A stretch of 64,000 nt of DNA from Escherichia coli 042 (GTDB taxonomy: Bacteria > Pseudomonadota > Gammaproteobacteria > Enterobacterales > Enterobacteriaceae), in NCBI RefSeq assembly GCF_000027125.1, contig NC_017626.1. The stretch is one strand, 5' to 3'. This document shows, piece after piece, positions 34,382 through 37,863 of this stretch. Each line of letters begins with the position of its first letter. The stretch's first letter is position 1. Both the position numbers and the translations under genes were made by a program. Under the pieces are notes generated by a model. The model did no database searches, was not told the DNA's origin, and saw only the letters and a list, made by a program, of their open reading frames with translations.

Positions 34382-36148
34382 TCACTGACTGATGCCAGTC
34401 ACACCATCCGCCAGTTCAATCAGGCGAATAAATTCCGCCCTGTAACCCTGTGGATCTTCCCCTTTTGCCTGCTGAGCCCACTGTTTGATCTGTTGCCATG
34501 AGATTTCGTTCAGGTATTCAGAACCGCGTAACTTTTGCCCATATGCAGCGACTGCTGCGCGAAAACGCATATCTTCAGAGGACGCGTTTATTGTTGGCCC
34601 CAGCGGGAATTCAACTAACTGACTTTCTTTACCCTGCGGGTATTTCCAACGAATCTTTAACCAGGCAAGTTCTTTTGTTTTGTCCGATTTCGCTGATTTG
34701 TTATCCGGGGCATAGCGTAACTTATCAATTGATGCTTTTTGCCCTTTCAGCGTTAATTCGAATAACAACGTTATATGTTTTCCTGCGCCAATATCACCCG
34801 CATCAACATTGTCGTTATTAAAATCTTCCGCCCGAAGTTGGCGCTTTTCATAACCAATCTGACGGTATTCCGTTACCCACGCGGGATTAAACTCAATTTG
34901 CGCTTTGACATCTTTTGCTACGCTAATCAACGTCTGCCGCATTTCACTGTTCAATACTTTCTGTGCTTCAGCGAGGGTATCAATGTAGCTGTAGTTACCG
35001 TTGCCAACATCGGCGATTCGCACCATCATTGCCTCGTTGTAATTGCTATCCCCCACGCCAAACGTGGACAGAGAAACACCGGACTCCCGCTGTTTTTTGA
35101 CCATTGATTCAATCGATTTAGGATCGTCAATGCCGACGTTAAAATCACCATCAGTGGCCAATAAAATGCGATTGATGCCACCCTTAATAAACCCCTTCGC
35201 CGCCTGCTGATAAGCCAGTTCCAGCCCGGCACCGCCATTGGTACTGCCTTCGGCATCCAGCGAATCAATTGCGGCATTAATTTCCGCCTTGTGACTCCCG
35301 GAGATAGAAGGCAACGCAATACGGGAGTCGCCAGCGTAGGTCACGATGGCAATGTTATCCTGCTCACGAAGTTCTTTGACCAATAATTTCAACGAAGACT
35401 GGATAAGTGGCAAACGTTCATCAGAAATCATTGAACCAGAAGTGTCGATAAGAAAGACCAGATTAGAAGCTGGTAACTCTTCACTTTTGCGATCTTTCGC
35501 CAGGATATCAACTTTCAGCAATGTTCGCTGTTCATTCCACGGCGCAGGTGCCAGTTCGCAGCGCATAGCGAAAGGTATTGGCTTACTGGCGGGAACAGGT
35601 TCTTTATTATTGCTTTTATCATTAATAACCCAGTCTGACGGAAAATAATTCACCATCTCCTCCACCCGCACTGCATCTGGCGGAGGCAACTGCCCATGAT
35701 TGAGAAAACGGCGTACATTCGCATAACTGCCGGTGTCGACGTCAAGGCTAAATGTCGCCAACGGGTTTTGCGCTACCTGCTTAACCGGATTATCATCGAA
35801 CTGCTGATAGCGAGCGGTTCCTGGATTTGCGATTTGGGAGGCTGCTTTTTCTCTGGCTGCATGTTGATATTTTGGAGCCGCCTGTAAGCGCCCCTGCAAA
35901 GCCTGTTTGTCTGAATATTGTTGCGCTTCTTGCTGGGCTAAGGCTTTTGCTTTCGCGTCTGCAGTGGCTTTAGCGGCGACGGATCTTTGCTCGGCCTCTT
36001 TTATTGCAGCTTGTTGCGCGGCAAGCACTTGCTGGTCTGTGGGAGTACTGGGTTGTTGTTGCAGACTTTCCTTATTCTCAGATTCCGGCCCACATCCTGA
36101 CAAAATCAAACTACTCATAAGCAACATGATTATATTTTTATTTCGCAT
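34382..36148 (-). CDS. yfbK: von Willebrand factor type A domain lipoprotein
   Basis: 588-aa ORF with a lipobox (LILSGCG) and a vWA MIDAS motif (DTSGSM). Confidence 0.85.
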   Translation of the reverse strand: MRNKNIIMLLMSSLILSGCGPESENKESLQQQPSTPTDQQVLAAQQAAIKEAEQRSVAAKATADAKAKALAQQEAQQYSDKQALQGRLQAAPKYQHAAREKAASQIANPGTARYQQFDDNPVKQVAQNPLATFSLDVDTGSYANVRRFLNHGQLPPPDAVRVEEMVNYFPSDWVINDKSNNKEPVPASKPIPFAMRCELAPAPWNEQRTLLKVDILAKDRKSEELPASNLVFLIDTSGSMISDERLPLIQSSLKLLVKELREQDNIAIVTYAGDSRIALPSISGSHKAEINAAIDSLDAEGSTNGGAGLELAYQQAAKGFIKGGINRILLATDGDFNVGIDDPKSIESMVKKQRESGVSLSTFGVGDSNYNEAMMVRIADVGNGNYSYIDTLAEAQKVLNSEMRQTLISVAKDVKAQIEFNPAWVTEYRQIGYEKRQLRAEDFNNDNVDAGDIGAGKHITLLFELTLKGQKASIDKLRYAPDNKSAKSDKTKELAWLKIRWKYPQGKESQLVEFPLGPTINASSEDMRFRAAVAAYGQKLRGSEYLNEISWQQIKQWAQQAKGEDPQGYRAEFIRLIELADGVTGISQ

Positions 36149-36285
36149 ATAAAATCCTTTTAAATAAACTCAGGCATCAGACATAAAATACACTCTTTGT
36201 ATCATCCTGCTGATCTTGATAAAATACAATATCGAAACCTATAACAAATAATGATTCAATAACGCAACCCATTAATAATTTGCAT

Positions 36286-37257
36286 ATGAAAAAAATAAAC
36301 TTTGCTTTTATTATATTAATTCTATTTTCACTCCCTCTGATTATTTTTTACCAACCCTGGGTCAATGCATTACCGCCAACGCCCCGACACGCAAGTCCTG
36401 AGCAATTAGAAAAAACAGTTCGTTATCTTACACAAACTGTGCATCCCCGTAGTGCCGACAATATTGATAATCTGAAAAGGTCCGCAGAGTATATAAAAGA
36501 GGTCTTTGTCAGTAGCGGTGCCAGAGTTACCGCGCAGGACGTCCCCATTACGGGAGGTCCCTACAAAAACATTGTTGCTGATTATGGTCCTGCCGATGGA
36601 CCGCTGATTATTATTGGTGCGCACTATGACTCTGTCAGTAGTTATGAAAATGATCAATTGACCTATACGCCGGGCGCGGATGATAACGCCAGCGGTGTGG
36701 CAGGATTACTCGAACTGGCACGTTTGTTACAGCAGCAAGCACCGAAAACTGGCGTGCAGCTGGTCGCCTATGCGTCGGAAGAACCGCCCTTCTTTCGTAG
36801 CGATGAAATGGGGAGCGCGGTACATGCAGCTTCGCTTGAGCGTCCAGTGAGATTAATGATAGCGCTGGAGATGATTGGCTATTACGACTCTGCGCCTGGT
36901 AGTCAGGATTACCCTTACCCGGCAATGTCCTGGCTTTATCCCGATCGGGGAGACTTTATTGCCGTGGTCGGCAGAATGCAGGATATCAACGCCGTTCGTC
37001 AGGTAAAAGCGGCATTGTTGTCATCCCGGGATTTATCTGTTTATTCTATGAATGCCCCAGGGTTTATTCCCGGCATTGATTTCTCTGACCATCTTAATTA
37101 TTGGCAACACGATATTCCCGCCGTAATGATTACCGACACCGCTTTTTATCGTAATAAACAATACCACTTGCCCGGTGATACCGCAGACAGATTGAATTAT
37201 CAGAAAATGGCTCAGGTAGTGGATGGGGTTATAACTTTGTTATACAACAGTAAATAA
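36286..37257 (+). CDS. yfbL: M28-family peptidase-like protein
   Basis: Signal peptide plus M28 zinc-peptidase motifs (GAHYDS, GADDNASG); start could be 36280 or 36286. Confidence 0.85.
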   Translation: MKKINFAFIILILFSLPLIIFYQPWVNALPPTPRHASPEQLEKTVRYLTQTVHPRSADNIDNLKRSAEYIKEVFVSSGARVTAQDVPITGGPYKNIVADYGPADGPLIIIGAHYDSVSSYENDQLTYTPGADDNASGVAGLLELARLLQQQAPKTGVQLVAYASEEPPFFRSDEMGSAVHAASLERPVRLMIALEMIGYYDSAPGSQDYPYPAMSWLYPDRGDFIAVVGRMQDINAVRQVKAALLSSRDLSVYSMNAPGFIPGIDFSDHLNYWQHDIPAVMITDTAFYRNKQYHLPGDTADRLNYQKMAQVVDGVITLLYNSK

Positions 37258-37359
37258 TAAAAATTTCTCGAGGCGGGTCCAGAAAAAGCGACATGTACAT
37301 TTTATTTTCCCTCGTCTGTTTTAAGATGCGAAACATGAAATTCAACGGAGGAAAATAAA

Positions 37360-37863
37360 ATGGGAATGATTGGCTATTTTGCAGAAATTGACTCAGAAAA
37401 GATTAACCAACTGCTTGAGTCTACTGAAAAACCCTTAATGGACAATATTCATGACACACTTTCAGGATTACGCCGACTGGATATTGATAAACGCTGGGAT
37501 TTTTTACACTTTGGGCTGACGGGCACCTCTGCGTTCGATCCAGCGAAGAATGATCCGCTGAGTCGTGCCGTGCTTGGTGAGCATAGCCTCGAAGATGGCA
37601 TAGATGGCTTCCTTGGATTGACCTGGAATCAGGAGTTAGCCGCGACAATCGACCGACTGGAATCACTGGATCGAAGTGAGCTGCGTAAAAAGTTTTCCAT
37701 TAAGCGACTCAATGAAATGGAGATTTACCCTGGTGTGACTTTTTCAGAAGAGTTAGAGGGGCAACTCTTTGCTTCGATCATGCTTGATATGGAAAAGCTG
37801 ATTAGTGCGTATCGACGTATGCTGCGACAAGGGAATCATGCGCTGACGGTTATTGTTGGGTGA
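37360..37863 (+). CDS. yfbM: DUF1877-family protein
   Basis: 167-aa ORF recognised as YfbM. Confidence 0.85.
   Translation: MGMIGYFAEIDSEKINQLLESTEKPLMDNIHDTLSGLRRLDIDKRWDFLHFGLTGTSAFDPAKNDPLSRAVLGEHSLEDGIDGFLGLTWNQELAATIDRLESLDRSELRKKFSIKRLNEMEIYPGVTFSEELEGQLFASIMLDMEKLISAYRRMLRQGNHALTVIVG

Follow-up and report, generated by a model that had tools for sequence, protein, structure and literature searches.

The genes yfbK, yfbL, and yfbM occupy the interval 34382–37863 of a 64,000-nucleotide stretch of the Escherichia coli 042 chromosome (NC_017626.1; "the window" hereafter refers to this whole stretch). The interval begins at the stop codon of yfbK and ends at that of yfbM, with elaD on its left and nuoN on its right, and the E. 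coli chromosomal sequence from 34000 to 38200 differs by 1 base from that of strain Ecol_316. The open reading frames (ORFs) of the three genes are concordant with the Prokaryotic Genome Annotation Pipeline (PGAP) annotation (Table 1). yfbK and yfbL are divergent and 137 nt apart, and yfbL, whose frame is open from a TTG at 36280, is followed on the same strand by yfbM after a 102-nt spacer. The initial annotation of this DNA described an adjacent cluster of a lipoprotein of the von Willebrand factor A (vWA) type, an M28 peptidase-like protein, and a DUF1877 protein, and these identities are right, as judged by strong Pfam matches and the lipobox of YfbK. The three genes were also described as not co-oriented, which applies to yfbK (minus strand) and not to yfbL and yfbM, which both lie on the plus strand. 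The view that none of them has an established function agrees with the literature searched, which gave only screen hits and structural-genomics entries. The pairing of the lipoprotein with the peptidase was further said to resemble envelope-associated processing systems. Here, we conclude that yfbK, yfbL, and yfbM are probably three separate, already annotated genes and not one system.

Domain organization of the three proteins

The Pfam matches of YfbK to vWF_A (6e-33), VWA (2e-21), and YfbK_C (5.9e-67) are all far above chance. The N terminus (MRNKNIIMLLMSSLILSGC) is a lipoprotein signal with a lipobox, which is also found in E. albertii, Superficieibacter, Salmonella, and most gamma- and betaproteobacterial homologs. 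According to the established +2 rule of lipoprotein sorting, Gly at position +2 suggests that YfbK is sorted to the outer membrane. In the AlphaFold2 model of YfbK, which has a mean predicted local distance difference test score (pLDDT) of 85, a helix at residues 38–84 and a segment with pLDDT below 50 (residues 84–105) precede a compact body. The body has the architecture of its own family, PF12450, VWA, and PF12034 in this order, and the same three domains are present in 40/40 homologs. The metal ion-dependent adhesion site (MIDAS) is complete (Asp235-x-Ser237-x-Ser239, Thr303, and Asp333) and invariant in an alignment of 40 sequences from many phyla. Among E. coli alleles, the folded domains are ~98% conserved, and the window segment 35601–36000 (residues ~50–183), which takes in much of the tether and the N-domain's first loop, is hypervariable, with 79.5% DNA identity to K-12. 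The alleles carry indels in the Ala/Lys/Gln-rich helix and mosaic blocks that they share, in differing combinations, with UTI89 and E. marmotae. In one E. coli allele (P0011, 615 aa), a stretch of 34 residues (IDTLSEAQKVLNSEMRQTLITVAKDVKAQIEFNP) where YfbK_C begins is duplicated in tandem.

The fold of the YfbK body, consisting of vWA, β-sandwich, and helical parts, is shared by ArnB of Sulfolobus (Protein Data Bank [PDB] IDs: 8S05 and 5A8J), a vWA protein of Catenulispora (4FX5), ITIH1 (6FPY), and the Sec23/24 core. A Foldseek comparison with the ArnB, 4FX5, ITIH1, and Sec24 folds gave E-values from 1e-18 to 1e-13, whereas the sequence identity to these proteins is only 12 to 16%. They lack the additional PF12450 N-domain of YfbK, and their settings (archaeal cytoplasmic motility regulation, extracellular matrix, and COPII coat) differ from that of a periplasmic lipoprotein. 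The likeness of YfbK to ArnB has previously been pointed out (PMC12852372), and a paper on a vWA force transducer mentions YfbK solely for fold comparison (PMC12204202). A force-transducer reading of YfbK was rejected because the protein has no transmembrane helix and no TolQ/ExbB-like gene adjoins yfbK. A peak of LldR in genomic systematic evolution of ligands by exponential enrichment (gSELEX) was reported inside yfbK of K-12; the match to the LldR box is weak (10/14 positions).

YfbL matches Peptidase_M28 with an E-value of 3e-26 and a score of 92.9 bits (Pfam gathering cut-off, 21.3). The initial annotation called this peptidase secreted. The M28 assignment stands; the N terminus has a hydrophobic anchor (residues ~5–21) instead of an obvious cleavable signal, so the protein is better described as exported or membrane-anchored and periplasmic. 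Its relatives are full-length proteins with 50 to 58% identity from environmental Proteobacteria. In 28 sequences of the YfbL subfamily, His113, Asp115, Asp133, Glu165, Glu166, Glu195, and His269 are invariant, and Asp132 is kept except for a single D132E. YfbL shares the His, Asp, Glu-Glu, and His positions of the di-zinc M28 aminopeptidases, represented by the Vibrio proteolyticus aminopeptidase (AAP; 1AMP) and a Bacillus/Aneurinibacillus enzyme (2EK8). By alignment, His113, Asp132/Asp133, Glu165/Glu166, Glu195, and His269 of YfbL correspond to His97, Asp117, Glu151/Glu152, Asp179, and His256 of AAP, respectively. Unlike AAP, which has Asp179, the YfbL subfamily has an invariant Glu at this position. 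The subfamily also differs from AAP and 2EK8 in its membrane anchor and a conserved QP(W/L/F)V motif. In all 28 sequences, this motif comes after a hydrophobic N-terminal segment; a few of them have a lipobox, and some homologs are lipoproteins. The M28-fold glutaminyl cyclases match YfbL with E-values similar to those of the aminopeptidases, and no biochemical report of YfbL peptidase activity was found in the literature searched. From its sequence, YfbL would be a membrane-anchored periplasmic M28 peptidase, in which the zinc-ligand and catalytic positions are all filled, and it may trim the N termini of envelope proteins or peptides.

YfbM matches DUF1877 (PF08974) over its full length (1e-35). 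It is essentially the same protein as the crystallized PDB entry 1RYL (1.5e-107) and shows no difference from this family. YfbM is predicted to be cytoplasmic because it has no signal sequence. Close relatives were found only in Escherichia and Shigella in the homolog search. The AlphaFold2 model built from a shallow alignment was poor (pLDDT 53). A shortened YfbM of 107 aa occurs in Shigella flexneri and in a few records labeled E. coli.

Table 1. Coordinates of genes, protein domains, and other features at the yfbK–yfbL–yfbM locus, numbered as in the window
Feature	Coordinates	Strand	Remarks
elaD/yfbK palindrome	34328..34361		34 nt, near-perfect; TTCGACCAATCAGCA-AATA-TGCTGACTGGTCGAA; between convergent elaD and yfbK, 20 nt past the yfbK stop
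yfbK CDS	34382..36148	-	588 aa; ORF, PGAP, Pfam
YfbK_C / DUF3520 (PF12034)	34406..34933	-	Residues 406–581; β-sandwich and helical bundle
yfbK segment missing from EC581-type and O157:H7/BL21-type haplotypes	34422..36016		
YfbK VWA domain	34961..35464	-	Residues 229–396; Pfam; complete MIDAS
YfbK vWF_A N-domain (PF12450)	35513..35818	-	Residues 111–212; Pfam
YfbK tether	35834..36091	-	Residues 20–105; Q/A/K-rich helix, then disordered segment; hypervariable among E. coli alleles
YfbK signal peptide and lipobox	36092..36148	-	Residues 1–19, ...LILSG-C19; read from sequence
yfbK–yfbL intergenic region	36149..36285		AT-rich, divergent
yfbL CDS	36286..37257	+	323 aa; ORF, PGAP, Pfam
yfbL segment missing from O157:H7/BL21-type haplotype	36548..36873		326 nt; frameshift giving a pseudogene
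yfbL–yfbM spacer	37258..37359		102 nt; GGAGG ribosome-binding site ahead of yfbM ATG
yfbM CDS	37360..37863	+	167 aa; ORF, PGAP, Pfam, PDB 1RYL
yfbM/nuoN bidirectional intrinsic terminator	37879..37912		GC stem 37887–37905 between an A8 run and a T run

Gene neighborhoods of YfbK and YfbL homologs

The proposed pairing of the vWA lipoprotein with the M28 peptidase was checked for co-occurrence from both sides, and it fails outside a narrow enterobacterial clade. Homologs of YfbK were collected by an exhaustive representative search (a word-indexed search gave near-identical E. coli clusters alone). The family comprises 7,182 clusters (50% identity) at E < 1e-30, all of which align over residues ~105–585, with variable and often long N termini. 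From these, 80 YfbK loci of many phyla were inspected together with flanks of up to 10 kb. A YfbL neighbor was present only in E. albertii, Superficieibacter, and Pseudocitrobacter, and a YfbM neighbor only in E. albertii. No M28 gene was detected by phmmer within 10 kb in any of the 77 YfbK loci outside Escherichia, Superficieibacter, and Pseudocitrobacter, and a profile made from the 28 YfbL-subfamily sequences revealed no further M28 gene across the 80 loci at E ≤ 10. From the YfbL side, a vWA neighbor was absent from all five distant loci whose YfbL orthologs have 50 to 57% identity. A glyoxalase/VOC-family gene adjoins the YfbL ortholog in three of these five loci (L093, 6066–6521; L094, 3523–4785; L095, 4601–4987), which may be due to chance.

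The YfbL orthologs at 64 to 67% identity are encoded on two enterobacterial contigs (L082 and L083), where the divergent yfbK–yfbL arrangement is kept between rbn and nuoN. Neither contig has yfbM or elaD; a Septu PtuA/PtuB defense pair lies exactly in the yfbM position of L082, and a cheV-like gene lies upstream in L083. In a chromosome fragment of Salmonella Infantis that was filed as a plasmid (L096), rbn is followed in order by a cheV-like gene, yfbK, the degenerate remnant of a DUF1877 gene, and nuoN, and yfbL is absent. The Salmonella yfbK is intact (593 aa, with a lipobox). The DUF1877 remnant (L096, 4001–4357), which occupies the yfbM slot upstream of nuoN, has 34% identity to YfbM and several internal stops and is followed by repetitive extragenic palindromic (REP)-like repeats. 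The consecutive numbering of SL2284 (yfbK) and SL2285 (nuoN) in strain SL1344 (PMC8065163) agrees with a Salmonella yfbK that is not accompanied by yfbL. In E. albertii NBRC 107761, yfbL (L002, 618–1631) has an in-frame stop in place of a Trp codon (...YPYSAMS*LYPARGDF...), and yfbK and yfbM are intact.

The recurrent neighbor of YfbK homologs is a sigma factor gene, which is of the extracytoplasmic function (ECF) type by Pfam. It directly adjoins the YfbK gene in 50 of the 80 loci, being downstream on the same strand in 26, upstream on the same strand in 19, and divergent in 5. No sigma gene was present in 21 loci despite adequate flanks, and the flanks of the other 9 were too short to judge. 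A conserved partner gene was sought among the sigma-less loci, and none was found. The N-terminal type of the YfbK-like proteins tracks the gene arrangement. In gamma- and betaproteobacteria, a YfbK-like lipoprotein of ~570 to 630 aa is followed immediately by the sigma gene and then by a gene for an anti-sigma-like single-pass protein. The proteins of Alphaproteobacteria, Verrucomicrobia, Planctomycetes, and Omnitrophota are longer (660–900 aa) and begin with a cytoplasmic segment and a transmembrane helix; their sigma gene lies upstream, often with a 4-nt overlap, and the N terminus of one fused homolog is a zf-HC2 anti-sigma domain by Pfam. The Bacteroidetes proteins have a signal peptide and a CarboxypepD_reg-like domain, and the sigma gene is divergent. 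The fused type has been published as the DUF3520 and vWA anti-sigma factor of group ECF289 by Casas-Pastor et al. 2021 (PMC7826278). Other N-terminal extensions of the family are diverse (PATR repeats in 6/40, and single cases of Tectonin, SLH, and MshEN), which suggests that the YfbK module has been reused on many scaffolds.

The nearest non-enterobacterial relatives of YfbK (50–56% identity) are lipoproteins whose genes lie immediately upstream of ECF sigma and anti-sigma-like genes, and such gene sets are seen in Pseudomonas, Shewanella, Colwellia, and Moraxellaceae. YfbK shares with the ECF289-type proteins and the lipoprotein sets the vWF_A N-domain, the VWA domain with the invariant MIDAS, and YfbK_C, at 45 to 56% identity over ~470 residues, and the gammaproteobacterial forms have the same lipobox and tether of ~90 residues. 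Unlike those sets, the loci of E. coli, Salmonella, and their relatives lack any sigma or anti-sigma gene beside yfbK, and no sigma gene lies within 10 kb of yfbK in the window or in L002–L004, L082, L083, and L096. YfbK thus has the periplasmic vWA and DUF3520 module of the ECF289 type, and it has neither the adjacent sigma gene nor the anti-sigma part, be it a fused cytoplasmic domain with a transmembrane helix or a separate downstream gene.

Variation in E. coli and intergenic elements

The presence of the three genes was examined in 5,426 complete E. coli genomes, with coverage of at least 80% taken as presence. yfbK was present in 2,512 (46%), full-length yfbL in 3,292 (61%), and yfbM in 5,355 (99%). 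A yfbL match with less than 80% coverage occurred in ~2,060 genomes (38%), and those sampled had a deletion remnant (66% coverage) or smaller pieces. About 14% of the genomes have yfbL and no yfbK. The states of the locus were then assigned in 60 records taken at even intervals: 28 had both genes, 9 had yfbL alone, 22 had the yfbL remnant and no yfbK, 1 had lost nearly everything, and none had yfbK with a deleted yfbL. Breakpoint mapping revealed at least seven haplotypes with independent deletions. The EC581-type and O157:H7/BL21-type haplotypes have identical breakpoints in yfbK, which indicates one ancestral yfbK deletion; the latter type has also lost a segment of yfbL (Table 1). An independent deletion in E2348/69 removed elaD and yfbK and retained yfbL, a deletion in CH4784 is associated with IS1, and UTI89 has no elaD. 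yfbM is intact beside IS1-truncated or internally deleted yfbL.

The variability extends to the whole interval between rbn and nuoN. The identity to K-12 is 92 to 97% over 33200–38000 and mostly 97 to 99.5% in the flanks, with one dip to 94% in nuoM. The cargo of this slot (32900–37930 in the window; loci L082, L083, L088, and L096) varies among strains and genera and includes elaD, yfbK, yfbL, yfbM, and yfbNOP. The genes yfbN, yfbO, and yfbP are present in K-12 and absent from the window, and K-12 is the only one of the genomes examined that has them in the slot; a cheV-like gene is found there in Salmonella and L083. The rbn–nuoN interval is a small indel hotspot for variable cargo. Readings of the three genes as defense genes or mobile elements were dropped: the PADLOC defense library gave no match for YfbK, YfbL, or YfbM, PHROGs gave one weak generic vWA match for YfbK, none of the phage records encodes a YfbM relative, and the E. 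coli plasmid matches were chromosome-sized or otherwise large nonmobilizable records, apparently chromosomal sequence filed as plasmids.

Several phenotypes have been reported. In a 2025 preprint, the Keio ΔyfbL and ΔyfbO strains were resistant to phage N4, and the resistance was complementable. yfbL was among the hits of the N4/T4 screen in that preprint, and yfbK and yfbM were not in its hit lists, in which only top hits are given. A yfbK mutant had low conjugation efficiency in one screen, and yfbK is disrupted in Salmonella Typhimurium U288.

The intergenic region between yfbK and yfbL was searched for a shared operator across enterobacterial genera, and none was found; conservation stops at the ribosome-binding region of yfbK. 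Promoter- and terminator-like matches stayed within what shuffled sequence would give. The terminator between yfbM and nuoN has a folding energy of -28.2 kcal/mol (z, -4.4; minus strand). At the other end of the locus, the palindrome between elaD and yfbK folds with -26.8 kcal/mol (z, -7.1; yfbK-sense strand) and has no U-tract. It survives in the haplotypes with the yfbK deletion; it may form a terminator-like hairpin or be bound by a protein. The neighboring elaD (33088–34257) ends at a TGA codon (34255–34257) owing to a T-to-G difference at 34256 from Ecol_316, in which the codon is TTA (Leu390). This stop shortens the ElaD/SseL-type deubiquitinase by 17 residues at its C terminus, and elaD has three further single-base differences from Ecol_316.

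Relationship of the three genes and possible role of YfbK

Here, we propose how the locus may be understood from the gene neighborhoods, the predicted structures, and the population data. The three genes differ in phyletic breadth, predicted compartment, retention in E. coli, and reported phenotype, and their adjacency is probably explained by their position in a variable slot that separates rbn from the nuo operon and not by a shared system. The arrangement itself is not that of one unit: yfbK is divergent, yfbM has its own ribosome-binding site, and the yfbK–yfbL synteny is found only within some Enterobacteriaceae. In YfbK, the variable tether would hold a periplasmic module composed of the N-domain, the vWA domain with its complete MIDAS, the β-sandwich, and the helical domain. 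In most other bacteria, this module probably serves as the periplasmic part of an ECF sigma signaling set. It takes one of two forms there: a fusion with the anti-sigma factor (ECF289 type), or a lipoprotein whose gene lies just upstream of those for the sigma and anti-sigma factors. The enterobacterial YfbK, with no sigma partner, may be a tethered metal-dependent periplasmic binding protein that acts as an orphan sensor. It is dispensable, as over half of the E. coli genomes do not have yfbK. YfbL belongs to a conserved proteobacterial subfamily with no fixed gene partner, and YfbM would be a cytoplasmic DUF1877 protein.

Several observations weigh against this interpretation. The divergent yfbK–yfbL pair persists in E. 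coli, E. albertii, Superficieibacter, Pseudocitrobacter, and the two contigs L082 and L083, in which both flanks change. In the E. coli sample, every disrupted yfbL stood in a genome that had already lost yfbK, and the common double-null haplotype lost yfbK first and part of yfbL in a later, separate deletion, the order that functional dependence would predict. This evidence comes from ~2 independent losses of yfbL, with shared ancestry as a confounder. Furthermore, a gene was called present or absent from its megablast coverage and not from ORF integrity. As to the sensor family, 21 of the 71 informative loci of other taxa also have no sigma gene, so a sigma-independent role of the YfbK module is possible, in which case "orphan" might be the wrong word.

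The first two observations bear on the possibility that YfbK and YfbL form an envelope pair specific to Enterobacteriaceae, in which the tethered MIDAS lipoprotein takes hold of a protein of the periplasm or outer membrane and hands it to the anchored M28 aminopeptidase or YfbL matures YfbK, with expression from a shared divergent promoter region. The persistence of the pair at the same site in several enterobacterial lineages and contigs despite flank turnover, the loss of yfbK first in the commonest double-null, and the predicted periplasmic exposure of both proteins are consistent with such a pair. However, it is unlikely, given the lack of co-occurrence outside the clade (0/77 YfbK loci and 0/5 YfbL loci), yfbK alone in Salmonella, the nonsense yfbL beside yfbK in E. 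albertii, the ~14% of E. coli, including E2348/69, that carry full-length yfbL without yfbK, the unconserved intergenic region, and the screen phenotype for yfbL only. A more elaborate version holds that YfbK lost its sigma factor and was re-partnered with YfbL in Enterobacteriaceae, that the resulting envelope module is a host factor for N4-like phages, and that the stepwise loss of first yfbK and then yfbL in about half of E. coli, O157:H7 and BL21 among them, was driven by phages and was not neutral decay; we consider this quite improbable. It is very improbable that yfbL and yfbM are a two-gene operon with cooperating products. They lie on the same strand with 102 nt between them, a search of this spacer gave no terminator-like site, and a terminator after yfbM would be shared, but the ribosome-binding site of yfbM is its own, and yfbM is retained in 99% of E. 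coli, of which ~39% have no full-length yfbL, and is intact next to truncated or deleted copies of yfbL. In addition, no yfbM lies beside yfbL in Superficieibacter, Pseudocitrobacter, L082, and L083, the close relatives of YfbM are limited to Escherichia and Shigella, and the two proteins are predicted to reside in the periplasm and the cytoplasm, respectively.

YfbK might also be a working ECF-type sensor in E. coli that feeds a distant sigma/anti-sigma pair, such as RpoE–RseA or FecI–FecR. The intact MIDAS and the position of the nearest non-enterobacterial relatives (50–56% identity) directly upstream of ECF sigma and anti-sigma-like genes would fit this role. Nevertheless, its probability is very small, because no sigma or anti-sigma gene is near yfbK in any enterobacterial locus examined and 54% of E. 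coli, O157:H7 and BL21 among them, do without yfbK at no apparent fitness cost. We know of no report that places yfbK in the RpoE or FecI pathways.

The analysis carries little weight as a discovery, since the genes were already annotated, the ECF289 link was already published, and the joint mechanism initially proposed for them is unsupported. The enterobacterial YfbK is best regarded as a lipoprotein-type, sigma-less representative of the ECF-associated vWA/DUF3520 sensor family and not as the partner of a peptidase. In E. coli, yfbK and yfbL are accessory genes that are absent or broken in frequent laboratory and pathogen lineages such as BL21 and O157:H7, and K-12 phenotypes such as the N4 resistance of ΔyfbL should be interpreted with the accessory status of yfbL in mind.

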